From positions 1 to 14,727 of the forward strand of contig JASFEA010000081.1 in the NCBI GenBank assembly GCA_050125095.1: a DNA stretch of 14,727 nt, read 5' to 3'. Source of the DNA: a bacterium. GTDB taxonomy: Bacteria; Arandabacterota; Arandabacteria; Arandabacterales; JALGWA01. The notes beneath the pieces were generated by a model. That model searched no databases. It was not told the origin of the DNA and was given only the letters and a program-made list of their open reading frames with translations. Of this stretch, positions 1-14,727 are shown in pieces. The position numbers and the translations under genes were made by a program. Position 1 is the first letter of the stretch. Each line of letters starts with the position of its first letter.

Positions 1-140
1 GCCGCGGCGCTCGCTGAGGCCTTCGAGGCCGTCCCGCGGTTCGGCTGCTCAGATTGTACTTGCACTTCCCACCTGTTCCGGGTACGCACAGAATTGAAAC
101 CGCAATTTACAGAAGAAGACAGATTGCCAGGAGGTAATGC

Positions 141-3011: not shown

Positions 3012-3041
3012 CGGGAACTTAACGGATTTCCGCAGAAGGTC

Positions 3042-3584
3042 CTAGCCCCGCGCACGCAGCGCCTCGCCCAGGGCCTCATGATAGACGTCCAGGTCGTCAG
3101 CCCCGAAGAGCACGAAAATGACCTTATCCAGGCTGGTCGCATCGCCAAAGTGATCGAGAACCGCGTCCACGGCGACGCGGGATGCCTTCTCTATGGGGTA
3201 CCCGTAAACGCCCGTGCTGATCGACGGAAAGGCGATGGTCTTGAAGCCGCGATCCACAGCAAGCGCGAGGCTCTTGTCATAGGCGCTTCTCAGCAGCCCC
3301 TCTTCCCCCTTATCTCCCCCCCGCCAGACCGGTCCAACGGTGTGAATCACATAGGCCGCCGGGAGATTGCCGGCTGTCGTGATCACCGCCTCGCCCGTGG
3401 GGCATCGGCCGATCTTACGGCATTCCGCCATTATGGCCGGCCCGCCGGCCCGGTGTATGGCCCCGTCCACCCCGCCCCCGCCCCTGAGGCCCTCATTGGC
3501 GGCATTGACTACGGCATCCGCTATCACCCGGGTGATGTCGCCGTTGAAGAGCTCTATGAACCTGCCGTTGTATTCGAAGTCCAT
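3042..3584 (-). CDS. Macro-domain protein (Appr-1-p processing / O-acetyl-ADP-ribose deacetylase, YmdB-like)
   Basis: The motif NGDITRVIADAVVNAANEGLRGGGGVDGAIHRAGG is the macro-domain ADP-ribose-binding signature, followed by VITTAGNLPAAYVIHTVGPVW. GGAGG sits 8 nt upstream of the ATG at 3584. The ORF stays open to another ATG at 3614 that has no Shine-Dalgarno, so 3584 is the preferred start. Confidence 0.85.
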   Translation of the reverse strand: MDFEYNGRFIELFNGDITRVIADAVVNAANEGLRGGGGVDGAIHRAGGPAIMAECRKIGRCPTGEAVITTAGNLPAAYVIHTVGPVWRGGDKGEEGLLRSAYDKSLALAVDRGFKTIAFPSISTGVYGYPIEKASRVAVDAVLDHFGDATSLDKVIFVLFGADDLDVYHEALGEALRARG

Positions 3585-3634
3585 TTCATCTACCTCCCCC
3601 CCGCACAATATCATTTTCCCGAACCGTTTTCAGC

Positions 3635-3663
3635 TTGACATTGATCTAAACTAATACTAATAT
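3635..3663 (+). promoter_or_regulatory. Sigma70-type promoter, TTGACA(3635-3640)-17 nt-TAATAT(3658-3663), driving the rrf2-ferredoxin-cooS operon
   Basis: Perfect -35 hexamer, optimal 17-nt spacer, and a 5/6 -10 hexamer (TAATAT) ~20 nt upstream of the AGGAGA RBS and the ATG at 3683. The surrounding region is AT-rich in a GC-rich genome. Confidence 0.5.
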
Positions 3664-3676
3664 AGTATCAGTTTAG
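3646..3676 (+). promoter_or_regulatory. Imperfect palindrome CTAAACTAATACT-aatat-AGTATCAGTTTAG (13-5-13, 12/13 arms pair) overlapping the -10 box; candidate Rrf2 autoregulatory operator
   Basis: The inverted repeat is read directly from the sequence. Rrf2 regulators (IscR, NsrR) bind AT-rich palindromes overlapping their own promoters. Its position between the -35 box and the RBS fits a repressor site. Confidence 0.4.
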
Positions 3677-3682
3677 GAGACT

Positions 3683-4099
3683 ATGATGAAACTGCTGACC
3701 AAAGACACGGATTACGCGGTGAGGGCCATCGTCCATCTCGCCCGCAACCCCGACGGCTACCAGTCCTCGCGCGAAATTGCAAAGGCCGAGGGCATACCTC
3801 TTCAGTTCCTGAGGGCCATACTCCAGAGGCTTACAAAAGAGGGCCTGATCGTCTCGCGCGAGGGAGTCAGGGGCGGCGTTAAACTCAAGGCCAGGCCCCG
3901 CGACGTGCGGGTGAGCGACATCATAAGGATTTTCCAGGGCGATATAGAGCTCTCCGAGTGCATGTTCAGGAAAAAACTCTGCTCCAACCGGTCCACCTGT
4001 GTTCTGAGAGCGAGAATAAAGTCAATCGAAGAGATGGTGAACAGGGAATTCGAGAAGGTGACGATTGCGAAATTGATAGACGACCTGGGAGGAAAATAA
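3683..4099 (+). CDS. Rrf2-family transcriptional regulator (IscR/NsrR-like, probable Fe-S cluster sensor)
   Basis: The N-terminal wHTH signature MKLLTKDTDYAVRAIVHLA and SSREIAKAEGIPLQFLRAILQRLTKEGLIVSREGVRGG match Rrf2. Three Cys at C93, C100 and C106 (C-x6-C-x5-C) sit where IscR and NsrR ligate their Fe-S cluster. RBS AGGAGA precedes the start, and the stop overlaps the next start (TAATG). Confidence 0.85.
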   Translation: MMKLLTKDTDYAVRAIVHLARNPDGYQSSREIAKAEGIPLQFLRAILQRLTKEGLIVSREGVRGGVKLKARPRDVRVSDIIRIFQGDIELSECMFRKKLCSNRSTCVLRARIKSIEEMVNREFEKVTIAKLIDDLGGK

Positions 4100-4938
4100 T
4101 GAAAAGAGACATGATACATATCGACGACGAGAAATGCGACGGGTGCGGGGCCTGCATACCCAATTGCCCGGAAGGCGCGATCCAGATTATCGACGGCAAG
4201 GCCCGGCTCGTCGGGGAGGCGCTTTGTGACGGGCTCGGCGCATGCGTCGGATTCTGCCCGCGGGGGGCAATGACCGTGGAGACGCGCGAGGCCGAGGCCT
4301 ATGACGAGCGCAAGGTGATGGCCAACATAGTGAAGCAGGGCATAAACGTGGTCGCGGCGCATCTCAGGCACCTTGACGACCACGGCCTGGTTTCATACCT
4401 GAATGAGGGTCTCGAGTATCTCAAGCAACACGGCATCGAGATTCCGGACTACAAGCGGCCTCCGAGGGGAGCGGGGGTCTCCCCCTGCAGTTGCGAGGGG
4501 TGGAAACCGCCCGAGCGGGAGGGCGCCTCAGCGACGTCCCGTACAGGCTCGCTCGCGTCCGAACTGAGGCAATGGCCGGTGCAGCTCAAGTTGCTCCCGA
4601 CCAGCGCACCCTATTTCCGGAACGCTGATCTTCTCATCGCCGCCGATTGCGTGCCGTTCGCGCATGGCGGCTTCCACGGCGACCTTCTTAAGGACAAGGC
4701 CGTAATCATGTTCTGCCCCAAGCTCGACCAGGGCATCGAGGATTACATAGAGAAGCTCGCCCGCATATTCGCGGAAAACGACATCAGGTCCATAACGATC
4801 GCGCATATGGAGGTGCCGTGCTGCTTCGGCACCAATCGCGTCATCGAGCAGGCGCTCAAGATGTCGGGTAAGAACATCCCGGTTGAGACGAAGGTCATTT
4901 CTATTCAGGGAAAGGTCCTTGAGACCCGGTCCTGTTAA
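4099..4938 (+). CDS. Iron-sulfur protein: N-terminal 2x[4Fe-4S] ferredoxin domain plus a ~170-aa Cys-rich C-terminal domain of unassigned family; likely electron-transfer partner of the downstream CooS-like enzyme
   Basis: Start ATG at 4099 with GGAGG 6 nt upstream, overlapping the rrf2 stop. The 5' ORF extension back to 3958 overlaps rrf2 and is rejected. CDGCGACIPNCPEGAI and CDGLGACVGFCPRGAM are two CxxCxxCxxxCP ferredoxin motifs. The C-terminal domain carries conserved-looking Cys at SPCSCEGW, AADCVPF, MFCPKLD and VPCCFG. Confidence 0.75.
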   Translation: MKRDMIHIDDEKCDGCGACIPNCPEGAIQIIDGKARLVGEALCDGLGACVGFCPRGAMTVETREAEAYDERKVMANIVKQGINVVAAHLRHLDDHGLVSYLNEGLEYLKQHGIEIPDYKRPPRGAGVSPCSCEGWKPPEREGASATSRTGSLASELRQWPVQLKLLPTSAPYFRNADLLIAADCVPFAHGGFHGDLLKDKAVIMFCPKLDQGIEDYIEKLARIFAENDIRSITIAHMEVPCCFGTNRVIEQALKMSGKNIPVETKVISIQGKVLETRSC

Positions 4939-4977
4939 GAGGTCAATCCGCGAAGGCGCGGGAAAAGGAGGCTCACA

Positions 4978-6912
4978 ATGGAAGGCCAGAGGATATCTCA
5001 TCACGAGTCCGTAAAGAAGGCTTATGAGAGAATCAAGAATGACGGCATGAACAACATCTGGGACCGATACGAGGCGCAGGGGATGGGCGGCAACCCCGAC
5101 CAGAGATGCGCGTTCTGCCTGGCGGGCACGCGCTGCGACCTCTGCTCCAACGGTCCCTGCCGGGCCGACGCAGCCAAGGACAAGCGGGGCGTCTGCGGCA
5201 TAAAGGCGGACGGCATGGCCATGCGAATGATGCTGCTCCGAAATGTCATGGGGGCGTCTACGTACCAGTACCACTGCGACCAGACCGTGAAGACGCTGCG
5301 CCTGACGGCATTGGGCGCGACGGACTACCGGATCCGTGAGCCCGAAAAACTCAAGACATTCGCCAAACGCCTCGGCGTGGACACCTCCGGATCGACAGAG
5401 GATACGGCCATCCGGCTCTGCGACTTCGTGCAGAGCGACTTCAATCGCAGCTACCAGGAGCCCAGCAAGGTGGTGGAGGCGCTGGCCCCAGAGGAGCGCA
5501 AGATACTCTGGAATGAGCTCGGCATATTCCCCGGCGGCATACATGGCGAGATAATGTTCTCGACGAGCTCATGTCTCACCAATGTTGACGGCTACTACCT
5601 GAGCCTGGCCCTCAAGGCGATGCGGCTCGGCGTCGCCATGGCCTACCAGAGCCAGATCGTGAACGAATACCTGCAGGACGTCCTCTTCGGCATTCCGCGG
5701 CCGCACAAGGTCAGAGTGGACCTCGGCGTGCTCGACCCGGAATACGTCAACATCCTCCCCAACGGCCACGAGCCCTTCCTCGGCTTCGCGATGGTTGAGC
5801 TCGCGCGGCAAGAGGAGTGGCAGGAAAAGGCGAAGGCTGCCGGCGCCAGGGGGATGAGGATAATAGCCAATATCGAGACAGGCCAGGAGATGATACAGCG
5901 CTGGGAGATGGACGATGTCTTCTACGGCTTCACAGGCAACTGGATAATGCAGGAAGCGGTGCTGGCCAGCGGCTGCGTCGACCTCTTCGCAGCGGACATG
6001 AACTGCTCGATGCCCGTTGATCCAGAGTATGCCGAAAAGTACAAGTTCAAGCTCATACCGGTGAGCGAGCTGGTCGCCTTCGAGGGTGTTACGGATAGGA
6101 TAAACTACATTCCTGAAAAGGCGAAGGAACAGGCGGGGATGCTCCTCGACATGGCCATCGCGAATTTCAAGGAGCGCAAGGGCCGCGTCGAGCCCATTAC
6201 CGGGCTCAGAATGCATGAAGCCATCGCCGGCTTCTCCACCGAGAGCATACTCGAGGTCCTGGGCGGAACGCTTGATCCGCTTCTTGACGCGATCAAGGCC
6301 GGCTCGCTGCGCGGCGTGGTCGGCCTCGTCTCATGCACGTCCCTGAGAGACAACGGCCAGGATGTGCATACGGTCAGGCTGGCCGGGGAACTCATCAAGC
6401 GGGATATCCTGGTGCTGTCGCTGGGCTGCGGAAATGCCGCGCTGCAAGTCGCGGGGCTCTGCAGCCCGGAGGCGAAGGAACAGGCGGGGCCCGGGCTCAA
6501 GGCCGTATGTGAGGCCCTGGGGGCCCCTCCCGTGCTGAGCTACGGCACATGCACCGACACCGGGCGGCTGGCCGACCTGCTTGCGGCCATATCCGGTGCC
6601 CTGGGCGGCGTCCCGATCAAAGACCTGCCGGTGGCCGCGGCGGCGCCCGAGTACATGGAGCAGAAGGCGACCATCGACGCGATCTTCGCCCTGGCACTGG
6701 GCCTTTACACCTATGTCAACCCAGTGCCCACGGTAACCGGCGCGCCCGACCTGGTCGGCCTCCTCACCGAAGGCTGCAAGGAGGTGACGGGCGGCGTACT
6801 CGATGTCGAGCAGGACGCGGTGAAGGCCGCCGACAACATCCTTGCGCATATCGAGAGCAACCGCGCCAAACTCGGGCTGGACGGCGCGAAGGCGGCCCAG
6901 AGCGCGGATTAA
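4978..6912 (+). CDS. cooS: Anaerobic Ni-CO dehydrogenase catalytic subunit family (CooS / hybrid-cluster-protein superfamily), divergent member
   Basis: AAGGAGG sits 6 nt upstream of the ATG. Strings characteristic of CooS by eye: NIWDRYEA, GVCGI, NGHEP, AGFSTE, GLKAV, LGCGNAA and SYGTCTD. N-terminal Cys pattern is C44-x2-C47-x5-C53-x2-C56-x4-C61-x11-C73, consistent with a CxxC D-cluster type plus B-cluster ligands. C-cluster ligand positions are present (H264, C343, C453, C484, C525), except that the canonical Cys after the His reads I299-E300. Confidence 0.8.
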   Translation: MEGQRISHHESVKKAYERIKNDGMNNIWDRYEAQGMGGNPDQRCAFCLAGTRCDLCSNGPCRADAAKDKRGVCGIKADGMAMRMMLLRNVMGASTYQYHCDQTVKTLRLTALGATDYRIREPEKLKTFAKRLGVDTSGSTEDTAIRLCDFVQSDFNRSYQEPSKVVEALAPEERKILWNELGIFPGGIHGEIMFSTSSCLTNVDGYYLSLALKAMRLGVAMAYQSQIVNEYLQDVLFGIPRPHKVRVDLGVLDPEYVNILPNGHEPFLGFAMVELARQEEWQEKAKAAGARGMRIIANIETGQEMIQRWEMDDVFYGFTGNWIMQEAVLASGCVDLFAADMNCSMPVDPEYAEKYKFKLIPVSELVAFEGVTDRINYIPEKAKEQAGMLLDMAIANFKERKGRVEPITGLRMHEAIAGFSTESILEVLGGTLDPLLDAIKAGSLRGVVGLVSCTSLRDNGQDVHTVRLAGELIKRDILVLSLGCGNAALQVAGLCSPEAKEQAGPGLKAVCEALGAPPVLSYGTCTDTGRLADLLAAISGALGGVPIKDLPVAAAAPEYMEQKATIDAIFALALGLYTYVNPVPTVTGAPDLVGLLTEGCKEVTGGVLDVEQDAVKAADNILAHIESNRAKLGLDGAKAAQSAD

Positions 6913-6942
6913 AGACGCCTGACCCTTTGAGCCGATCTGAGC

Positions 6943-6983
6943 GGGGCGGTCCCCCGGGGGCCGCCCCCATACATTTGGTATTG
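6943..6983 (+). terminator. Probable intrinsic terminator after cooS
   Basis: GC hairpin GGGGCGG-t-CCCCC/GGGGG-CCGCCCC at 6943-6967, 30 nt after the stop, followed by CATACATTTGGTATTG. The T-tract is imperfect. Confidence 0.45.
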
Positions 6984-7030
6984 TCTCGGCGCACTTATTG
7001 TGTTACAAATGCCCCTAGCGGAGGTTGTTT

Positions 7031-7333
7031 ATGATCCTGGATGAACTTAAGGGCGAGATAGTCCTCATCAAGCTCAAGAGCCATGAAGAGCTTGAGACCT
7101 TCGGCGTGCCTTCCTCCAGTATTTACGCCAAGGTGATAGAAATCGACGAGCGCGTGGGCGTCTGGGTGGAGAATCCCAAGTGGTCACCAAAGAAGACCGC
7201 CAAGGAAGACGCGGAGCATATGACCCAGATCCTGATCCGGTGGGAATACGTCGTGGGTTTAATGACATTCCCGGACAGAGAGGGATTCAAGGAGGAAGCG
7301 GAAATAAAGCCCATGGGTTTCGTTACCAAGTAA
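7031..7333 (+). CDS. Hypothetical small cytoplasmic protein (100 aa), no recognised domain
   Basis: GGAGG at 7020-7024 sits 6 nt before the ATG at 7031, so the TTG at 7025 from the ORF track is unlikely. No signal peptide. Local GC (~52%) is below the window average. Sequence MILDELKGEIVLIKLKSHEELETFGVPSSSIYAKVIEIDERVGVWVENPKW... Confidence 0.5.
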   Translation: MILDELKGEIVLIKLKSHEELETFGVPSSSIYAKVIEIDERVGVWVENPKWSPKKTAKEDAEHMTQILIRWEYVVGLMTFPDREGFKEEAEIKPMGFVTK

Positions 7334-7437
7334 TCCTATCCGCGTAACCCTCCCGGCGAAACTCTCTCTTTAAGATCCCTGTCGCGGCGAGGTTCCGGGG
7401 CGTTTGCCTCTTTCCTGCAGCCTTTACATGTCTGTCA

Positions 7438-9177
7438 CTACCTGGCTATGACCACCTTGGCCGTCAGCGCCTCAGCGCCCGTATCAAGGCGCAGGAAGTA
7501 GATGCCGGAGCTCAGGCTGCCGGCCAGGGAACCCGTGGCATTCCAGCCGAGCTCATGGTACCCCTCTTCCCTGCGGCCGTTGACCAGGTCGCGGATATGC
7601 CTGCCGGCCACGTTGTATACCCCGATCCTCACATCGGCGGCCGCCGGAAGCCCGAAAACGATGCTGGTGCTCGACGTCAGGACGCTGCCGCCGGCGACTG
7701 TAAGAACGACCCTGTCAGGAATACCCGCTAGGTCCCCGCCTTCCACGCCCGAGGTCGAACCCCAGAGCGTGAAGTCGGAGTCGCTGGCGTCGGACGCCTC
7801 GTTGGGTACGCCATCGAACGCCACGACCTTTATTCTCGCGGTCTTCGAGTCCATGTCGGGCACCGTCCACATGAAAGACCCGTCATTGACCTCGCCCTGT
7901 GCCAGCGTGTCGGAATAGGTCACTCCTCCGTCGGTCGATAGCACTATGGTTATGCCCGTTATGCGCGCGTTATCGCTCGCCGACCAGGTGATTTCTTGAT
8001 CCGTGTTGTACTCCAGGATCTCGCCGCCATTGGGCGAAGTAAGCTCGACCTCAGGCGGGATGGGGTCCCGCTCTACCACGGGAACCACCGCGAAATCGGG
8101 ATCGCCCGCAAAACGCATACACTCGTTGAGGCCGCATGACGGAACGTCCGCGTTGGCCATCAGGAACGCGTCGCGTACGCTGTATCCCTGGTCCATGTAA
8201 TTGAAGAGGGCGGCCTGCCACATAATGGACTCGGTCCAGCAATTGGCGCACCACGTCTCCGCCATATGGCAGTAGCCAACGGTGGTAGTCGCCTCCCAGG
8301 AGCCCTTGCGGAATGCGTCGGAGAACGACCCGCTGAGGGTGTCGCACATGCCCTCACAGCTTCCCAGAAACGTAAAAGGCATCTTGGCCCGGTTGGCGAT
8401 CCACAGTTCGACTTTGAAAGAGCCGATATCCAGACCGCTTGAACCGTCGCAGCCGTACATGAAGCTGGTCGACCCGCCGTGGTTGAGCTCGTAGAACATG
8501 GCAGTGTGGTCCGACTTGACGTGTCCCCTGATCTGCTCGAGCGTCGGCCACTTGACTCCCTCGGTGGTATAGCCCATGTTCTCAAACCAGGTCTCGGCGT
8601 TCTGGTACCAGCTCGTCCAGGCGCCGTAGTATGGACACTCCCAGGGTCCGGTGAAAGAGAAGCCCTCGGTCGGCGGCGGCACGCCGTCCCCGAGCAGGGC
8701 CCCGGTTGCCGCGTTCACCACCTTTACGACCAGGCGGCCGTCCACGATGCTGCGCACCACCCAGCACGGGTCCGTGGGCGCGGGCTCCAGCGGGAATACG
8801 GCCGACTCGGGGGAGATATAATACAGCCTCGAGAACTGAATCTCGCCGCCCACAGTCGCCTCGGCATCTTCCCGTGATATCAGGCCGGCGGGAAGCGTCT
8901 CCGGGAGGCCGTCCCGCCAGTTGTATCGCCTGTCGAGCAGCTCTCCGGTCTCCCTGTCGAACTGGTAGACGATATTGTCCAGCTCCACGGCTGCCTCGCC
9001 GATCATCCGCTGATGGTAGTATACGATCTTGTCGCCGAACACGCCCTCCCGGAAGGCGCGGTCACCCGACTCGTACTTGCTGAGAAGACCCATAGCCGCG
9101 GACGCGCTGTCCAGCGATACGAGGATCGCAAGGGCGACGAGCGCGGTTACTGCCATATACCTCTTACAAGACTCCAT
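7438..9177 (-). CDS. Secreted Cys-rich putative cysteine peptidase (clan-CD-like His-x41-Cys dyad; tentatively legumain/gingipain/clostripain-type) with a conserved pre-CTD beta-sandwich domain and a Por/T9SS type-A C-terminal sorting domain
   Basis: AGGAGGT sits 7 nt upstream of the ATG at 9177 (MESCKRYMAVTALVALAILVSLDSASAA is a signal peptide). The ORF stays open to 9207 without an RBS. NHGG followed 41 residues later by FTFLGSCEG has the His-Gly...hydrophobic-strand-Cys geometry of caspase-fold peptidases (legumain has H148/C189). The C-terminal ~90 aa (IVFGLP...VRIGVYNVAGRHIRDL...GYHELGWNA...SGIYFLRLDTG...TAKVVIAR) match the T9SS CTD pattern. Confidence 0.75.
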   Translation of the reverse strand: MESCKRYMAVTALVALAILVSLDSASAAMGLLSKYESGDRAFREGVFGDKIVYYHQRMIGEAAVELDNIVYQFDRETGELLDRRYNWRDGLPETLPAGLISREDAEATVGGEIQFSRLYYISPESAVFPLEPAPTDPCWVVRSIVDGRLVVKVVNAATGALLGDGVPPPTEGFSFTGPWECPYYGAWTSWYQNAETWFENMGYTTEGVKWPTLEQIRGHVKSDHTAMFYELNHGGSTSFMYGCDGSSGLDIGSFKVELWIANRAKMPFTFLGSCEGMCDTLSGSFSDAFRKGSWEATTTVGYCHMAETWCANCWTESIMWQAALFNYMDQGYSVRDAFLMANADVPSCGLNECMRFAGDPDFAVVPVVERDPIPPEVELTSPNGGEILEYNTDQEITWSASDNARITGITIVLSTDGGVTYSDTLAQGEVNDGSFMWTVPDMDSKTARIKVVAFDGVPNEASDASDSDFTLWGSTSGVEGGDLAGIPDRVVLTVAGGSVLTSSTSIVFGLPAAADVRIGVYNVAGRHIRDLVNGRREEGYHELGWNATGSLAGSLSSGIYFLRLDTGAEALTAKVVIAR

Positions 9178-9225
9178 GTGCCGACCTCCTAATCCCTCAG
9201 CCTGCAAGCCCAGACAGCCGCATCA

Positions 9226-9253
9226 ACTATCCTCAAAAAGGACAGTGCGTCAA
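9226..9253 (-). promoter_or_regulatory. Candidate sigma70 promoter for the downstream protease gene (minus strand TTGACG-16 nt-GATAGT)
   Basis: On the minus strand, TTGACG (revcomp of 9248-9253) is followed after a 16-nt spacer by GATAGT (revcomp of 9226-9231), ~50 nt upstream of the RBS and ATG at 9177. Only 4/6 match in the -10 box. Confidence 0.3.
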
Positions 9254-9317
9254 GACGCCGTCATGCCCTCTGCCTACAGTGTGCCACAGCGGGCGAGTTA
9301 AGCAAGCGCCGCGTCGG

Positions 9318-9416
9318 TATAAATCGAGACAAATTCGAACCAGGCTTGGTGGAGGATGGGCGCCCCATGCCTTGCTCCTCGTATTCTGTGTGGTCTTCCC
9401 CGGCGACCCATCCTCC
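9318..9416 (-). terminator. Large stem-loop immediately 3' of the upstream protease gene, followed by a U-rich tract; candidate terminator or attenuator
   Basis: On the minus strand the 14-bp stem GGAGGAUGGG-u-CGCC...GGCG-CCCAUCCUCC (arms 9351-9364 and 9402-9416, 10 perfect plus 4 bp with a one-nucleotide bulge) encloses a 37-nt loop and begins 10 nt after the stop at 9427. It is followed by a small ACCA-agcc-UGGU hairpin and UUCGAAUUUGUCUCGAUUUAUA. Confidence 0.35.
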
Positions 9417-9426
9417 AAATGCACTT

Positions 9427-11910
9427 CTACCAGGCAATAACAATCTTGGCCGTTGCTTCACCTCCATCGCTATTGAGCCTTAAGAAATAGATACCAGGGC
9501 CAAGCCTGCCTCCCGCCTCAGTTCTCAAATCCCAGGTTATGTGATGATATCCCGCCTGCCTCTGCCCGCTCATGACGGCTGCAACGCGGCGGCCCGCCAC
9601 GTCGTAGCAGTCTATACTCGCGCGGGAAGGTGACGGCAAACCGAATTCGATCTTCGCAGGCGCGCCGGCGAGCGCGCCGCCCTCCACGCTTATCGAAACC
9701 GCGTCCGGAACGCGCGGGGCGTCGGGGTCGTCGACTCCGGACTGGTAACCCCAGAGCCTGAAATTCGCGTCGCTCTCGTCCTCGCCCTCATTCGAGGCGG
9801 CGTCGCGCGCGACGATCCTAATGCGCGCGACACCGCAGTCGATATCGGGGGCGTACCACGAATAGACCCCGTCGTCTGCTTCGCCCGAGGCGATCGTGTC
9901 GGGGAAGGTCACGCCACCGTCGGTGGAGAGCAGTATGCATACGGACGTAACGCCTATGTTGTCGGAGGCCGTCCACTCTATGTCATAGGTCGAGCCGAAG
10001 TGGAAGACTTCGCCGCCGTTCGGGCTGGCAACTGTCACGGCGGGCGGCTCTAAGTCTATTACGGCCGATTCGCAGGACCTGACGGCGACATCGTCGATGG
10101 CCGCTTCCACGATTGATCCGGGAGAGGAGTCCTGGGCCACGAACCTGAACTTCATCTGGCCGGTGAGCTCGACGTAGTCCTCGAGATAGAACTCCTTCTT
10201 CGTCCAGGCCCTTCCGCTGTATGAAAGCGTCTCGAGATTCTGCCAGGTCGCCCCGTCATCGCTCGACACGTCCACCACGAAGTCGTCGTCATTGGGGCCG
10301 GATCCCGTGTCGCTGGCGTACCACCTGTAGTAGGTCAGAACCGCCGAGTCGACATCGGAAAGGTCGACGGCCGGGCTCACGAGCGTTGTCCGGCCCCCGT
10401 CCACGTCATAGGCGCCCTGCGAATCGCCGGGATTGGACTGCTGCGTGAAGAAGCAGGTCGTTCCCGTCCCCGGCGTGTGGTCGTCCCCGGGCTGTACTTC
10501 CTCCGGTCCCCAGTAAGTGGCGTTGGGGTCGCCGCGCTCCCACATCCCCGTAACGGCCCCGTCGCCGGGCGCCCCGGAGGTCCACCCCAGGTCGGACTCG
10601 AAGTCATCTTCGAATACAGTTACGACTTCGCCTCCCTGCAGCACGAGTGCTCTGGTGGAACTCCCCTGGTCGGATGTTATCTCAATCTGGAAAACGAGCG
10701 CGCCGCAGGCCTGCGCCGAAGCGTCAACGGCAAAAGAAAAATGGGGACTGTATGATTCGAGCACCGCTCCCTTGTCTATATCGGGGTAGGCCGCCACGCT
10801 ATCGGTCACCGTGACGGAGCCTAGCGTGCTCCGGAGCGTGGCGCTTACATTCGTGGCGGTCTCCGCGCCGATATTGAGAAGCCTGACCGCCAGTATGACG
10901 GGCTCACCGGGCTCGATGTCGCCGTCTCCGTCGCCGGCGCTGTCGTCTATCGTATGGGAGTCATGGAAGAAGTGAACCGTCTGGCCGGGCGTGTAGTTGA
11001 GGGCGTCCGTGGCATAGCCGATATAGCTCGCGCCGTACTTGATGTACATATAGCCGCCGTCGCCCCAGTCGGGCCCCCACGAGTTCTTCATGATCCAGGC
11101 GCCGTCACCGCCGCACATGGTGTCGTCCCAGCCCACGAGCAGCACGCCATGGTTGATCTCGGTGCAGTTCTCCTCATAGCAGCCCCCGGTGTAGGAGCTG
11201 AATCCGCCGCATACCGCGATGGCGCAGGCCACCGGCCCTTCAAGCAACGCCGTCTTTATGGCCAGGACGGTGTCGTCGACATAGTAGTAGGAGTCGAGAT
11301 ACGCCGCCACGTCGCATGAAGAGACCGCACATGCCTCGGTGTCGTTCTCGTGATACGGCATGCACGACTCCCTGACGCCTCCCTGAGTGATGAACAGGTC
11401 ATATGCCGTTTCCATCCAGCCTCCGCTGCAGTCGTCGCCATTGGGGTTGCATACAAGTATGGCCTGCTCTGAGAGGTCCTCTTCCAGACCGCTGTAGATA
11501 AGGATCCGGGACTCGAGAGCCGCGGCCGCGCAAAAAGCCCAGCAGCTCCCGCAGTTGCCCTGGTTCTTGACTGGAGTCACTCCGCCCTGCGTCCGCCAGT
11601 CGAATGAAGACGGGAAGCTCATTCCTTCAGGAGCGGTTATGAGGCGGCCGTCGAGCGCGGCTCTCCGCCTGCGCTCCTGGAGGTCGGGCGGCAGCCTGAG
11701 GCCGAGGAGGCGCTGGAACTCCTCGTCGGTGAGCCGCGAAACCGAGGTCCGGCCCGCCGTCCACGAATACCCTTCCTCCTCAATATTCCGGTTTATGCGG
11801 TCGATCTTGGCCTGCTCGGCCTCCGGGGACAGCTCCGCCCGGAGGCAGGTCCCAGGCCAGACCGCGGCCAGTAGATACACGAGTACTGCCACGATAGCGG
11901 TCGATTTCAA
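9427..11910 (-). CDS. Secreted papain-family (C1A) cysteine peptidase with CARDB-like domain, MAM-like domain, conserved pre-CTD beta-sandwich domain and Por/T9SS type-A C-terminal sorting domain
   Basis: Papain catalytic signatures are present: Q in KNQGNCGSCWAF (Cys148), INHGVLLVGWDD (His280), NSWGPDWGDGGYMYIKYG (Asn/Trp). FEDDFESDLGW...GMWERG...DDHTPGTGTTCFF...RFVAQD...IDDVAV resembles a MAM/jelly-roll domain. The C-terminal IEFGLP...IDCYDVAGRRVA...GYHHITWDLR...PGIYFLRLNSDGGEATAKIVIAW is a T9SS CTD. The ORF is open to a TTG at 11988 with no RBS. A TTG at 11910, preceded by AAAGGGGCGG, gives a canonical signal peptide MKSTAIVAVLVYLLAAVWPGTCLRA, so the start is uncertain between 11910 and 11988. 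Confidence 0.8.
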   Translation of the reverse strand: MKSTAIVAVLVYLLAAVWPGTCLRAELSPEAEQAKIDRINRNIEEEGYSWTAGRTSVSRLTDEEFQRLLGLRLPPDLQERRRRAALDGRLITAPEGMSFPSSFDWRTQGGVTPVKNQGNCGSCWAFCAAAALESRILIYSGLEEDLSEQAILVCNPNGDDCSGGWMETAYDLFITQGGVRESCMPYHENDTEACAVSSCDVAAYLDSYYYVDDTVLAIKTALLEGPVACAIAVCGGFSSYTGGCYEENCTEINHGVLLVGWDDTMCGGDGAWIMKNSWGPDWGDGGYMYIKYGASYIGYATDALNYTPGQTVHFFHDSHTIDDSAGDGDGDIEPGEPVILAVRLLNIGAETATNVSATLRSTLGSVTVTDSVAAYPDIDKGAVLESYSPHFSFAVDASAQACGALVFQIEITSDQGSSTRALVLQGGEVVTVFEDDFESDLGWTSGAPGDGAVTGMWERGDPNATYWGPEEVQPGDDHTPGTGTTCFFTQQSNPGDSQGAYDVDGGRTTLVSPAVDLSDVDSAVLTYYRWYASDTGSGPNDDDFVVDVSSDDGATWQNLETLSYSGRAWTKKEFYLEDYVELTGQMKFRFVAQDSSPGSIVEAAIDDVAVRSCESAVIDLEPPAVTVASPNGGEVFHFGSTYDIEWTASDNIGVTSVCILLSTDGGVTFPDTIASGEADDGVYSWYAPDIDCGVARIRIVARDAASNEGEDESDANFRLWGYQSGVDDPDAPRVPDAVSISVEGGALAGAPAKIEFGLPSPSRASIDCYDVAGRRVAAVMSGQRQAGYHHITWDLRTEAGGRLGPGIYFLRLNSDGGEATAKIVIAW

Positions 11911-12001
11911 TAAACCGCCCCTTTCCAGGCCCGGCAACGGGGACTCCCGCTCACGGAAAGCCCGATAATATATATCTTTACGAATCAATTATACCACAAT
12001 A

Positions 12002-12034
12002 AGGGGCGCTCTCTCAAGCGACTTGTGCGCCCCT
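12002..12034. other. Nested GC hairpin AGGGGCGC-tctct-CAAG-cga-CTTG-t-GCGCCCCT in the divergent intergenic region, within or upstream of the C1A protease 5' leader
   Basis: Perfect 8-bp outer stem and 4-bp inner stem read directly from the sequence. On the minus strand it is followed by UUAUUGUGGUAUAAUU, which is terminator- or attenuator-like. Function unknown. Confidence 0.3.
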
Positions 12035-12318
12035 CTACTCCCGACCATCCCAAGTCGACCCGCTGAGGTAAATTATTGAATAACAAGCCATTAAGTATAT
12101 TAATATCGTTCCATACAGGGCTGCTGGGCGCCCTTCTATACCCATTGCAGCCCCCCACCACCCCGATATACCATTCATTAAGACTGTGAAGGCCCTGAGG
12201 GCCCCTGAAGCGGGCATTTGAGGCGAGCCCCGTCCCCCAATCCCGCGCGGGTCTTGACCCGGTGTCCTGCATGTGCTAGATATGATTTGCGGCTCTAACC
12301 ACATTGAGGAGGCTTGGA

Positions 12319-13455
12319 ATGGCAAGGTACCTGGCGATATCGGGCATATTAATCCTGGCAGCAGCCTTTATTCAGGGGTGCGGCGGCGATGACGGCGGGG
12401 TCGGCGTTACCATACCGGCCGTAACCGCGACCGTACCGGCGGACGGGGCAACCGGGGTAGCCATGAATACCTCAATATCCGTCACTTTCTCGCGCGAGAT
12501 GGAAGCCTCCACGCTTGATTCGATTTACGTGAACGGCCGGGCAGCATATCGGGTAGTCTACAACAACGCACAGAAAACGGCGACGGCCTACCTCGACAGC
12601 ATGCTGGGCGCCCAGACCGTATGCCAGGTGAAGGTATCGTCTTATTGCATGGACAAGTCGGGCAACAACCTGAGCGGCGACCATGAATTCAGCTTCACGA
12701 CGGGTGATTTCGGCTGCGACGAGCTGGAGGACCCGTTCGCTGACAATATGTCCATCGCGACGGCGGCCGAGGTGGATTTCAACACCAGATACAAGCTCCT
12801 GCCGAGCTGCGGAGGCCAGGGCGCCATGCATTACTTCAAGCTCGTCCTCTCGCAGGCCACCATGATCACCGCCAAATACAGGATTATAGACGCCGATACC
12901 ACCCAGGTTAGCTGGAGGCTCTATTTCAAGCGGGCCGACGAGGAAGACTACACGAGCCAGGGCTCGAGTCCCGTCGTTGCGGACCACCATGAGTACAGCA
13001 TGCGCTATTCATTCCTTCCCGGTACCTACTACATCAAGACCGGCAAGGAAGAAGACACCGGCCATACGGCGGTCTATGAGATTGAATTCGAGGACTCGGA
13101 AGCCTGCGCCGACGACGCTTATGAAGACAACGATTTCTTTGACGAGGCCACGCCGGTCACGCCCGGCACCCTCGAGAATCTCCGGTCATGTTATACAGAC
13201 GACGACTACTACTCCATAGACCTTACGACGGGGCAGACCATCACTGTGACTCTGGACGCCCCGGGAACCTCTGGCACGCTGCGAAGGGTCTGGATATACA
13301 ATCCCAGCAATATGGAGATGGGGCGTTATAACGGTTACGGCAACCCGGTTGTCCTGGAGAGAACCGCCTATATGGACGGGACCCACTACGTGTGTTCTCG
13401 CTGGTGGATAGATGACGTGGACTATAACCTGACAATCGAGGTGACGGGACCCTAG
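12319..13455 (+). CDS. Lipoprotein with N-terminal SbsA-type Ig-like (Big_5-like) domain and two PPC-like (pre-peptidase C-terminal-type) beta-sandwich domains
   Basis: GAGGAGG sits 6 nt before the ATG at 12319, so the TTG at 12304 is rejected. MARYLAISGILILAAAFIQGCGG is a signal peptide plus lipobox-like Cys. VTATVPADGATGVAMNTSISVTFSREMEASTL matches the Big_5/SbsA Ig-like motif. Two segments match the PPC pattern D-x-[YF]-E-x-N-D...A-x-[IV]...D-x-D-[YW]-[YF]: DPFADNMSIATAAEV...AMHYFKL and DAYEDNDFFDEATPV...DDDYYSIDLTTGQTITV. Confidence 0.75.
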   Translation: MARYLAISGILILAAAFIQGCGGDDGGVGVTIPAVTATVPADGATGVAMNTSISVTFSREMEASTLDSIYVNGRAAYRVVYNNAQKTATAYLDSMLGAQTVCQVKVSSYCMDKSGNNLSGDHEFSFTTGDFGCDELEDPFADNMSIATAAEVDFNTRYKLLPSCGGQGAMHYFKLVLSQATMITAKYRIIDADTTQVSWRLYFKRADEEDYTSQGSSPVVADHHEYSMRYSFLPGTYYIKTGKEEDTGHTAVYEIEFEDSEACADDAYEDNDFFDEATPVTPGTLENLRSCYTDDDYYSIDLTTGQTITVTLDAPGTSGTLRRVWIYNPSNMEMGRYNGYGNPVVLERTAYMDGTHYVCSRWWIDDVDYNLTIEVTGP

Positions 13456-13501
13456 GACCGGCGCATCAGGAGACATTAAGCCGGGATCTGCCCCCTGGTG
13501 C

Positions 13502-13559
13502 ATGTGCATCCTGAGACCTGACCCCTGAGGATGTGCATTTCAAGACCTGACCCCTAGCG
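13502..13559. repeat. Two immediately adjacent 29-bp direct repeats (ATGTGCAT-N4-AGACCTGACCCCT-N4) between convergent genes, preceded by an additional GTGCATGTGCAT
   Basis: Unit 13502-13530 is ATGTGCATCCTGAGACCTGACCCCTGAGG and unit 13531-13559 is ATGTGCATTTCAAGACCTGACCCCTAGCG, identical at 21 of 25 core positions. The second copy overlaps the hflK stop codon, and a T5 run follows. Confidence 0.4.
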
Positions 13560-14600
13560 TTTTTGGGTGGGCAATATGAGGCGGAGATTGGCGGTTCCGT
13601 CCTCGCCGGAACGGTCCACCATGTAAACCTTCAGGTTCGGCAGGATTTTTTCCATCTTCTCGATGTAGATGCGGGAGGCGGTGACCTCCCTGTTCCTCGA
13701 GTACTCCTCAAGCAGCGACAGGAAGCGCTCGGCCTCGCCGCGGGCCATCTCGACCCTCTCGTCCCTGTAGGCTTCGGCTTCGCGCACCATGCTAATGGCC
13801 TTGCCGCGTGTGGCGGGGATGATGGTGTTCTTGTAGCCCTCGGCTTCGTTTACGAGCCTGCTCCTGTCCTCCCTCGCGCTGGCCACGTCACGGAAGGCGT
13901 AGGCGACTTCCACGGGCGGGCTTATGTCCTGGAAGTAGGCGCCGATCACGGTTACGCCGATGCCGTATTCGTCGGCGACTTTCTGCACGCCGGCCTTTAT
14001 TAGCGCCTGGGCCTGGAGTTTCTCGGTCGTGAGAAGGGCATCTACGCCCATGCTTCCCACAACCGCCGCAACGACTTCCTCCGAGGCGACCTCCACGAGC
14101 CTCGTGGGATTATCGGATGTGAACAGATAGCTTTTCGGGTCGCTTATGGCGTACTGGATGATCACCTGGACGAGTATTACATTGGTGTCCCCGGTCAGCG
14201 TCTCGAGCCCGCCCACAGTTGACGATTCGCCCTCCTTGCCGAGGCCCACAAGCATCTTCTTGATCTCGGCCGTCTTGGGCCGGTATACGCGGTCCACCGG
14301 CCAGGGAACGCTGTAATGTATGCCCGGCGGCACGTTGTCGGCGATTACCTTGCCGAAACGCATCACCACGCCGAGCTCGTCCGTCTGGACGACGTATATT
14401 CCTGATAGCAGATATGCGAGCACCGCCACGACGGCTATCACCGACAGGAATCTCCTGTTAGCAAACGGAATCGACTTGAGCCCCGCCAGTATTATGTCGG
14501 CCGCCGACGGGTTATCGGGCGGAGAAGCCGGCTTATTCACGGGCGCGTCTTTGGAAATGTCCCCGGGCCTATCGGGCCCGGCATCAGGACCCTGGTTCAT
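13554..14600 (-). CDS. hflK: HflK (FtsH protease modulator, SPFH/band-7 family)
   Basis: AGGTGA RBS sits 4 nt before the ATG. The protein has an N-terminal Pro/Ala-rich tail, then one TM segment (FLSVIAVVAVLAYLLSGIYVV), then an SPFH domain. The C-terminal SRIYIEKMEKILPNLKVYMVD and EAEAYRDERVEMARGEAERF parallel E. coli HflK RERLYIETMEKVLGNTRKVLVN and EARAYKAQTILEAQGEVARF. Confidence 0.85.
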   Translation of the reverse strand: MNQGPDAGPDRPGDISKDAPVNKPASPPDNPSAADIILAGLKSIPFANRRFLSVIAVVAVLAYLLSGIYVVQTDELGVVMRFGKVIADNVPPGIHYSVPWPVDRVYRPKTAEIKKMLVGLGKEGESSTVGGLETLTGDTNVILVQVIIQYAISDPKSYLFTSDNPTRLVEVASEEVVAAVVGSMGVDALLTTEKLQAQALIKAGVQKVADEYGIGVTVIGAYFQDISPPVEVAYAFRDVASAREDRSRLVNEAEGYKNTIIPATRGKAISMVREAEAYRDERVEMARGEAERFLSLLEEYSRNREVTASRIYIEKMEKILPNLKVYMVDRSGEDGTANLRLILPTQKR

Positions 14601-14621
14601 CCTGTCACCTTCAAGTTCTTC

Positions 14622-14727
14622 TTATCTCTCCTTGAAGAGCCTCAATAGCTCAGAGTCGGTGGAGAGAACGACCGTCGTCTTGCTGTTCAGGAACTTCTCG
14701 TACGCCTGGAGGGTACGCGTGAGCTTG
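14622..14727 (-). CDS. hflC: 3' end of hflC (partial, runs off the window edge)
   Basis: The minus-strand frame ends ...KLTRTLQAYEKFLNSKTTVVLSTDSELLRLFKER-stop, closely paralleling the E. coli HflC C-terminus ...SLQAYEKSFSGNQDVMVLSPDSDFFRYM. The stop lies 21 nt upstream of the hflK start. Gene order here is hflC then hflK. Confidence 0.55.
   Translation of the reverse strand, partial: KLTRTLQAYEKFLNSKTTVVLSTDSELLRLFKER

Follow-up and report, generated by a model that had tools for sequence, protein, structure and literature searches.

Why would two neighbouring bacterial genes encode cysteine peptidases that can be aligned with each other over their last 205 residues and nowhere else? This question is raised by a locus on contig JASFEA010000081.1 (assembly GCA_050125095.1), of which the stretch from position 1 to 14,727, called the window here, was analysed over its full length of 14,727 nucleotides (G+C content about 61%). 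Two intact long open reading frames (ORFs) lie on its minus strand, at 9427-11988 (upstream) and 7438-9207 (downstream). An original prediction, made from the letters of the DNA, had placed tandem secreted cysteine proteases there, and both the frames and the motifs attributed to them are real (QGNCGSCWAF, INHG and NSWG upstream, ELNHGG...FTFLGSCEG downstream). We think it likely that these two co-oriented genes, gene 1 and gene 2 in the following, encode exported cysteine-peptidase zymogens which share an immunoglobulin-like (Ig-like) domain and a C-terminal sorting-type domain (CTD) as their export tail. The catalytic head of the gene 2 product appears, by sequence comparison and modelling, to represent an undescribed clan CD family that lies outside the coverage of Pfam, NCBIfam and the PDB. 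The two genes are predicted as follows.

9427..11910, minus strand: gene 1, encoding a C1A cysteine peptidase of procathepsin-L-like type that is predicted to be secreted and bears a long C-terminal extension (about 827 residues; ORF and Pfam)
7438..9177, minus strand: gene 2, encoding a cysteine peptidase of clan CD (caspase fold) that is predicted to be secreted and belongs to an unnamed family (579 residues; ORF)

The head of the gene 2 product

Gene 2 most likely starts at the ATG at 9177, and not at 9207 where the frame had been taken to begin, because the sequence AGGAGG stands 7 nucleotides upstream of this codon and the resulting 579 residues equal the length of a near-identical database protein (P0001), with which the gene 2 product shares 99% identity. 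The following parts are predicted.

9097..9177, minus strand: signal peptide MESCKRYMAVTALVALAILVSLDSASA, read from the translation
8686..9051, minus strand: PepSY/FTP-like prodomain (head residues 43-164)
8068..8685, minus strand: caspase-fold catalytic domain (head residues 165-370)
8479..8481, minus strand: codon of the putative catalytic His, with Gly next to it (His243 when counted in the ORF from 9207, H233 when counted in the head; codon checked)
8356..8358, minus strand: codon of the putative catalytic Cys (Cys284 when counted in the ORF from 9207, C274 when counted in the head; codon checked)
7756..8058, minus strand: Ig-like pre-CTD domain
7441..7719, minus strand: CTD, from profile scores and seven predicted strands

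The head, taken as the first 375 residues, has no match in Pfam or NCBIfam. It also lacks a sequence match in the PDB, even when searched as a profile of 38 sequences at E <= 10, and none of the clan CD families of Pfam matches any of 38 relatives of gene 2. A structure of the head was modelled with AlphaFold2 on 38 homologues and reached a mean predicted local distance difference test (pLDDT) score of 87; the signal peptide was modelled as a single helix, with a confidence below that of the rest of the model. In a Foldseek search the model resembled CHAT proteases (8.7e-09), YpeB (8.6e-06) and caspases (about 1e-4), and according to two structure-comparison methods the modelled head is of the clan CD (caspase-hemoglobinase) fold with a six-stranded central sheet. 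The N-terminal part alone resembles PepSY-type folds, namely those of YpeB (score 9.4), the fungalysin propeptide (8.1) and the vibriolysin propeptide (7.6), and the assignment of a PepSY-type prodomain is further supported by matches of Pfam PepSY to 7 of the 38 relatives.

The clan-CD-like dyad that had been proposed for this protein as His-x41-Cys is borne out by the fold and by the invariance of both residues, whereas its spacing was off by one: His243 and Cys284 are 41 positions apart, with 40 residues between them. In the model the dyad sits at the C-terminal ends of consecutive core strands, with H233 directly after strand 225-231 and C274 directly after strand 268-271, as in the caspase layout. 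Both residues are 100% conserved in 242 aligned heads, and the Gly that follows the His (G234) is conserved to at least 90%. Assignment to clan CD relies on just such features, a His and then a Cys after strands 3 and 4 and a Gly beside the His (PMC4357240). Four other conserved residues, E230, D359, R290 and K291, could line the S1 pocket of the enzyme. In addition, eight non-catalytic cysteines are 91-100% conserved in the 242 homologues (C138, C243, C278, C303, C310, C313, C348 and C353 in head numbering). The conserved cysteines show CxxxC and CxxC spacings beside the catalytic Cys; they may form disulfides or a metal site, a choice that their conservation leaves undecided.

Is gene 2 then a divergent member of the gingipain family, C25? 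At the sequence level we reject this. Peptidase_C25 (PF01364) matches neither the gene 2 product (E <= 0.1) nor any of the 38 relatives (E <= 0.05), and Propeptide_C25 (PF08126) does not match the gene 2 product, whose prodomain is PepSY/FTP-like by fold. When the profile of the gene 2 family was compared by hhalign with eight genuine Peptidase_C25 proteins from related metagenome-assembled genomes (MAGs), only the shared CTD aligned. The protein is thus gingipain-like in design, with a prodomain, a clan CD domain, an Ig-like domain and a CTD, and yet is not a C25 member. With the gingipains RgpB and Kgp, which are C25 peptidases and T9SS (type IX secretion system) cargo in Porphyromonas gingivalis, it shares the order of His and Cys and the order of domains from an N-terminal inhibitory prodomain to a C-terminal sorting domain, and it is predicted, like them, to be a secreted cysteine endopeptidase of an anaerobic, protein-degrading bacterium of the FCB superphylum. 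It differs from them in having no detectable sequence relationship, in its type of prodomain and in its eight additional conserved cysteines. The gingipain catalytic domain is also larger than the approximately 210 residues found here.

A second comparison is with CHAT, caspase and metacaspase proteases (C14 and CHAT), in which the dyad likewise follows strands 3 and 4 of the same core layout. To our knowledge, these are cytoplasmic, regulated enzymes of signalling or defence that lack signal peptides. The gene 2 product and its relatives, in contrast, have no match to Pfam CHAT or Peptidase_C14, and their family is predicted to be exported and is fused to surface-anchoring modules. Finally, the FTP/PepSY propeptides of M4 and M36 peptidases (thermolysin and fungalysin type) sit on zinc metallopeptidases, whereas that of gene 2 sits on a caspase-fold cysteine peptidase, where its inhibitory role is putative.

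Spread of the head and its tails

When 1.84 billion representative proteins were scanned in full with phmmer, 495 members of the gene 2 head family were found at E <= 1e-3, 234 of them at E <= 1e-30. Those matches that are named by their source are all called 'hypothetical protein', except for one 'PepSY domain-containing protein'. The head is nearly always N-terminal, and the tails behind it can be as long as about 2,200 residues. According to GTDB species representatives and MAG labels, its bacterial hosts are Eisenbacteria, Planctomycetota, Zixibacteria, Ignavibacteria, Aminicenantes, Desulfobacterota, Dehalococcoidia and Patescibacteria, and its archaeal MAG hosts are Bathyarchaeota, Methanophagales, Ethanoperedens, Methanomicrobiales, Woesearchaeota and Nanoarchaeota, the heads of GTDB species representatives being 36-81% identical. 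Several of these MAGs come from sediment, seep or hydrothermal samples, as judged from record names or source studies. Among the contigs with a head of 36-50% identity are six archaeal ones (L029, L049, L067, L072, L079, L084) and two of Patescibacteria (L057, L068); their heads reflect either inter-domain horizontal transfer or contamination during binning.

A Pfam census of 68 tails counted the FlgD_ig CTD 25 times, beta-helix 11 times, FG-GAP 10 times, dockerin 8 times and cohesin 3 times, with PKD, HYR, CARDB and IPTL-CTERM among the rarer types. Zixibacteria, Ignavibacteria and Dehalococcoidales MAGs (L055:7084-10029; L022, L013, L051) join the head to IPTL-CTERM, to dockerin, or to cohesin plus dockerin, without a CTD. 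By these domain assignments, the type of tail follows the host lineage. Taken together, we lean, with some reserve, towards the view that gene 2 founds an undescribed clan CD family, in which a PepSY-type prodomain is joined to a compact domain of the caspase fold that eight conserved cysteines stabilise. The family would have spread horizontally among anaerobic sediment bacteria, with members also in archaea such as ANME relatives, and each host would have fused the head to a surface-targeting module of its own, be it a T9SS-type CTD, dockerin, cohesin, IPTL-CTERM, beta-helix or PKD arrays.

But could gene 2 encode a clan CD transpeptidase, ligase or processing enzyme, akin to the PorU sortase, GPI transamidase or legumain-type ligases, that matures or attaches for example the C1 peptidase or other CTD cargo? 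In CTD-bearing lineages gene 2 always lies beside other secreted peptidases, and an identity of 40-57% across bacteria and archaea is unusually tight for a scavenging enzyme. We nonetheless hold such a function to be very improbable. The family occurs in Planctomycetota, Dehalococcoidia, Patescibacteria and archaea without a CTD or a C1 partner and with dockerin, cohesin, beta-helix or PKD tails instead, and has thus no fixed link with either CTD cargo or T9SS. Moreover, the head matches neither of the PorU models NF033707 and NF052324, and the succession of prodomain, catalytic domain, Ig-like domain and CTD is the architecture of a cargo protease.

The gene 1 product

Gene 1 most likely starts at the TTG at 11910, which gives about 827 residues, or at 11937, which gives 836; public gene calls have either 827 or 836 residues. 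Its parts are predicted as follows.

11836..11910, minus strand: signal peptide LKSTAIVAVLVYLLAAVWPGTCLRA, with a basic N-region, a hydrophobic core and an A-x-A-like end, read by eye
11614..11832, minus strand: propeptide homologous to the cathepsin L (I29-type) propeptide, from phmmer alignments
11005..11613, minus strand: papain-fold catalytic domain (PF00112, residues 126-328 of the 853-residue ORF)
10081..10983, minus strand: middle region of beta-sandwich modules with a weak choice-of-anchor-J / Reelin-subrepeat-B-like domain, from weak profile matches
9748..10047, minus strand: Ig-like (Big_7 / Kre9_KNH-type) pre-CTD domain (PF17957 at 26.0 bits, cut-off 24.1; local hidden Markov model, HMM, 5e-49)
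9430..9708, minus strand: CTD, from profile scores (local CTD HMM 1e-35)

That this protein is a papain-like C1A peptidase had been predicted correctly. It matches Peptidase_C1 (PF00112) with 1.2e-53 and 182.9 bits (cut-off 20.7) over profile positions 2-215 of 220, and the active-site set is complete and in order, with Gln and Cys in QGNCGSCW (as part of QGNCGSCWAF), His in INHG and Asn in KNSWG. The best PDB sequence match is the cathepsin L-like protein 3qj3_A (3.7e-43), procathepsin L scoring about 1e-36, and by sequence the gene 1 product is a cathepsin-L-like C1A peptidase. Alignments by phmmer to procathepsins L, K and S begin at query residue 35-59, which is 40-65 residues ahead of the mature domain; Pfam Inhibitor_I29 was not reported for gene 1 at E <= 0.1. 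The protein shares the Gln/Cys/His/Asn set and a putatively homologous propeptide with cathepsin L-like C1A peptidases (procathepsins L, K and S and plant papain-like enzymes) and differs from them by about 500 additional C-terminal residues, which comprise beta-sandwiches, a choice-of-anchor-J-like domain, the Ig-like domain and the CTD. The middle region of about 300 residues matches NF038128 with 25.3 bits, under the cut-off of 30, and PF21471 with 19.7 bits, and has weak similarity to the accessory domains that myxobacterial M36 and serine peptidases carry.

The N-termini of both the gene 1 and the gene 2 product look like Sec signal peptides. A lipoprotein signal in gene 1 (..PGTC..) was considered and rejected by eye, as the residues preceding the Cys are unlike a lipobox.

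The shared cassette and its distribution

In a pairwise BLASTP comparison the last 205 residues of the two proteins align without gaps at 45% identity and 64% positives (E 2e-57), and outside these residues nothing aligns. This similarity is far beyond chance and upholds the proposed homology of the pre-CTD domain and the CTD. The cassette consists of the Ig-like domain followed by the CTD of about 90 residues and was modelled as two beta-sandwiches (pLDDT 87), with the seven predicted strands of the CTD spanning cassette residues 118 to 204. Searches with a single cassette sequence returned mostly short fragments of the same gene pair, and searches with a cassette profile returned short CTD-only fragments.

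The occurrence of the CTD was followed with a local HMM, built from the last ~93 residues of 20 cassettes and run on six-frame, stop-to-stop ORFs of at least 80 residues from 84 fetched loci and the window. All of its 76 ORF matches lie within 13 residues of the ORF end, behind heads as different as Peptidase_C1, Peptidase_C10 with HYR, Peptidase_C25 with its propeptide, Peptidase_M14, GHL10, FG-GAP and DUF7901/GEVED. The matches are found only in loci of Eisenbacteria-labelled MAGs, of JALG-prefixed Guaymas Basin MAGs or of unnamed MAGs; among the 84 fetched loci there is none in those labelled Planctomycetota, Ignavibacteria or Zixibacteria, nor in the archaeal ones. Since the CTD sits on many heads in this lineage (C1, C10, C25, M14, GHL10 and FG-GAP among them) and the clan CD head bears many tails elsewhere, the shuffling of modules envisaged in the original prediction is well supported. 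The cassette is probably a general C-terminal address label of the secreted enzymes of this lineage.

Is the CTD a type IX sorting signal?

The question then is whether this label addresses its bearers to T9SS. Like the type A CTDs of T9SS (TIGR04183 / PF18962) and FlgD_ig (PF13860), the CTD is a domain of about 90 residues at the extreme C-terminus, folded as a seven-strand beta-sandwich behind an Ig-like domain, and with the former it shares two conserved residues, a Gly in the region of the beta3-beta4 loop and a Lys in the final strand. The Gly (Gly152 of the cassette, G41 in the CTD-only alignment), which lies in ..VAGR.., is invariant. The Lys (Lys201, in ..TAKVVIAR before the stop) is at least 90% conserved in the closest relatives, and Lys or Arg stands there in nearly all of the wider set. 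Two CTD motifs are required for T9SS export in P. gingivalis, and Gly152 and Lys201 correspond to them (PMC11285876).

In profile searches, however, the predicted T9SS type of the CTD was only partly recovered, and we regard it as borderline. With TIGR04183, the model of the T9SS type A sorting domain (cut-off 23), gene 1 scores above the threshold at 25.0 bits and gene 2 just under it at 21.8 bits. Neither gene comes near the cut-off of 27 for Por_Secre_tail (PF18962), with 17.1 bits for gene 1 and 16.8 bits for gene 2, and in both this model is outscored by FlgD_ig (32.8 bits for gene 1, 23.2 bits for gene 2; cut-off 27). In these borderline scores, in the preference of Pfam for FlgD_ig and in having a host outside the Bacteroidota, the CTD differs from the type A domains proper. 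On the other hand, the same CTD in the C10, M14 and C25 neighbours of related MAGs reaches 23.7-31.7 bits with TIGR04183, above the cut-off. NCBI names Eisenbacteria proteins with this CTD 'T9SS type A sorting domain-containing protein', a name that represents annotation and not experiment.

What kind of organism carries the locus? The closest named genomes are Eisenbacteria MAGs and the JALG-prefixed records of Guaymas Basin MAGs. According to Gong et al. 2022, as far as that work is cited in PMC13271369, JALG-prefixed names denote genera of Joyebacterota, a new phylum of the FCB superphylum. Joyebacterota MAGs have a G+C content of 57-64% (PMC13271369), and Eisenbacteria share a root with Latescibacterota (PMC11323493). 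The host is, with good probability, an uncultured anaerobic sediment bacterium from that part of the FCB superphylum to which Eisenbacteria and Joyebacterota belong. T9SS is considered to be restricted to this superphylum and may occur in several of its phyla beyond Bacteroidota, and with nearest MAGs that are Eisenbacteria-like it is to be expected here rather than surprising (PMC11285876).

Several further observations weigh against a T9SS route. Over some 35 kb of the source genome, and over flanks of 10-20 kb in relatives, none of the core genes (SprA/Sov, PorK/L/M/N, PorU and PorV) was seen, though these spans are far too small for this to count as absence; the searched literature reports no T9SS in Eisenbacteria or Joyebacterota and no link of Latescibacteria or Zixibacteria to it. 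An NCBIfam scan of the seven largest unexplained ORFs beside CTD genes gave AddA/RecB helicases, CO dehydrogenase, beta-helix proteins and similar, and no T9SS component. Neighbouring C25 proteins of 1280-1320 residues in related loci were considered as candidates for the sortase PorU and rejected, as they score 49-71 bits with NF033707 (cut-off 420) and carry Propeptide_C25 like gingipain-type cargo. In general, what can be said about activity, secretion and processing in both gene families derives from sequences and models.

The CTD might accordingly be a generic FlgD_ig-type beta-sandwich that serves in surface attachment, substrate binding or stabilisation, with the proteins leaving the cell by type II secretion, in vesicles or upon lysis. 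The profile scores given above and the searches for core genes and for reports of T9SS fit such a domain; so does the structure search of the CTD, which was not specific for T9SS CTDs, and so does a pseudopilin-type cluster (GspH, two N_methyl proteins and DUF4900) immediately upstream of the pair in one relative (L086:3587-6989). We think a generic domain of this kind improbable, as it is opposed by the scores of several members above the curated T9SS type A cut-off, by the coincidence of the conserved Gly and Lys with two functionally required motifs, by the position of the lineage within the FCB superphylum and by the other anchoring tails that the same head bears outside that group. Above all, the CTD, strictly C-terminal as it is on functionally unrelated secreted enzymes in 76 of 76 ORF matches, behaves as an address label and not as a binding module. 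For the two proteins of the window we infer export by T9SS, and a functional T9SS in the genome, as the original prediction took to be implied, is plausible.

Possible coupling of the two genes

Are the genes of the pair also linked in function? Two features of the DNA bear on their transcription.

11988..12017, minus strand: sigma-70-like promoter upstream of gene 1 (TTGAGA, 18-nucleotide spacer, TG-TATAAT; consensus match)
9178..9426, minus strand: intergenic spacer of 249 nucleotides, with AGGAGG at 9185-9190, 7 nucleotides before the start of gene 2

The promoter-like site of gene 1 has 11 of 12 consensus matches and an extended -10 TG, measured against a consensus that may not be that of this lineage. 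A sequence scan of the 249-nucleotide spacer found no terminator-like hairpin on the minus strand, and several MAGs have a spacer of only roughly 0-90 nucleotides at the orthologous locus. From this arrangement the two genes are probably co-transcribed. Near-identical copies of the locus are present on metagenome contigs of 355 kb and 264 kb, and in nine species-level MAGs (L005-L010, L012, L015, L020) a C1 gene lies directly upstream of gene 2 on the same strand, the pair being kept in two further metagenome contigs as well. The C1 catalytic domains of conserved pairs are 67-84% identical, and pairing persists down to a head identity of 53-56%.

Against coupling, the spacer also holds a weak promoter-like site (9253-9226, 9 of 12 matches), from which gene 2 could possibly be transcribed separately, and two loci (L014 and L040) have gene 2 with the cassette and no adjoining C1 partner. 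Furthermore, the whole neighbourhood is syntenic in relatives, with Band_7 genes on one side of the pair and genes for a hybrid-cluster protein, Fer4, Rrf2, Macro and HEAT proteins on the other. Since the pair is embedded in synteny with unrelated genes, adjacency alone does not show functional coupling and may be a matter of inheritance.

This leads to the alternative that neither gene depends on the other in function, and that they adjoin each other and have a tail in common only through an old local duplication or recombination of the tail, after which a syntenic block was inherited vertically. The cassettes agree with it in one respect. Those of the two paralogues within a genome are 44-54% identical, no more than cassettes from different genomes (mean 49%), with orthologues at 52-55%. 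As within-genome identity roughly equals that between genomes, the tail was shared before the clade diversified and is not being homogenised, and a signal of ongoing gene conversion or co-evolution is missing; concerted evolution of the two cassettes, which we considered as a candidate, is thus unsupported. Still, independence seems to us rather unlikely, though a good deal less so than a generic CTD. Even at 53% head identity the pair retains its order and orientation, with the short spacers and without the predicted terminator described above, and the head clusters separately, in different arrangements, with other CTD-bearing peptidases (C25, M14, C10 and another C1).

The idea of 'protease islands' is independently supported by nine other loci of Eisenbacteria/Joyebacterota-type MAGs which place the head behind C25-CTD and M14-CTD genes (L023:311-8754; L024, L037, L039, L041, L044, L045, L063, L066). 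This second array opens with Peptidase_C25 with Propeptide_C25 and CTD (about 1300 residues), continues with Peptidase_M14 with CarboxypepD_reg and CTD (about 565 residues) and closes with the clan CD head, to which an FG-GAP/UnbV_ASPIC tail and the CTD are joined (about 950 residues). The T9SS cargo of P. gingivalis likewise includes a C25 and an M14 peptidase, RgpB and CPG70 (PMC11285876). The suggestion that the pair in the window forms a dedicated proteolysis module is plausible.

Other genes in the neighbourhood

In one relative (L015:1-2799) the gene directly upstream of the pair encodes a streptopain-type Peptidase_C10 protein that has HYR domains and ends in the same CTD (31.7 bits with TIGR04183), which makes three tandem cysteine peptidases of three families, C10, C1 and unnamed clan CD. 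The pair in the window is adjoined at 3683-6912 by an operon-like group of genes for an Rrf2 regulator, a 4Fe-4S ferredoxin-domain protein and a hybrid-cluster (Prismane) protein, which is syntenic in all close relatives and typical of anaerobes. An ORF of 102 residues without a family match (7025-7333, plus strand) converges with gene 2; public calls give a gene of 100 residues in two relatives (L001, L088), and in another relative (L085/L086) it is replaced by a Cupin_2 gene. Divergent from gene 1, at 12304-13455 on the plus strand, is the gene for a protein of 383 residues that has a Big_5 Ig-like domain (6.7e-19) and is weakly PPC-like at its C-terminus; the CTD HMM of the lineage gave no match to this protein. 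A protein of 956 residues with only faint HEAT-repeat matches (141-3011, plus strand) is conserved in all relatives. On a near-identical public contig a DUF123 gene precedes the gene for the latter protein, and genes for M28 (with PDZ) and M1 aminopeptidases follow at a distance; these aminopeptidases are consistent with a protein-degrading lifestyle.

Proposed pathway and significance

We propose that both proteins would be exported to the periplasm by Sec and would fold there as inactive zymogens. The CTD would then direct their passage across the outer membrane through T9SS and be removed, upon which the enzymes may be attached to the surface or released. Removal of the prodomains would finally yield two endopeptidases of different specificity for the degradation of extracellular protein.

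The locus is an ordinary CTD-tagged secreted-protease locus of FCB bacteria and overturns nothing; its interest lies in an unnamed and tightly conserved clan CD family. In anoxic sediments, extracellular cysteine peptidases, especially those of gingipain-like clan CD type, and zinc carboxypeptidases dominate the predicted exported peptidases, and in anoxic estuarine sediment exported gingipain-like (C25) enzymes make up more than 40% of them (PMC6752024). The gene 2 family shares its fold and the logic of its export with the gingipain-like enzymes of sediments and adjoins genuine C25 and M14 enzymes in relatives. Being 'hypothetical' everywhere, it would escape peptidase inventories that are based on MEROPS or Pfam. 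Its modular evolution pairs one catalytic head with whichever surface-sorting tail the host lineage uses, and the locus adds an indirect hint, unreported in the searched literature, that FCB lineages of the Eisenbacteria/Joyebacterota type use T9SS-style C-terminal sorting. If our reading is true, enzymes of the gene 2 type would add to the degradation of extracellular protein in anoxic sediments.

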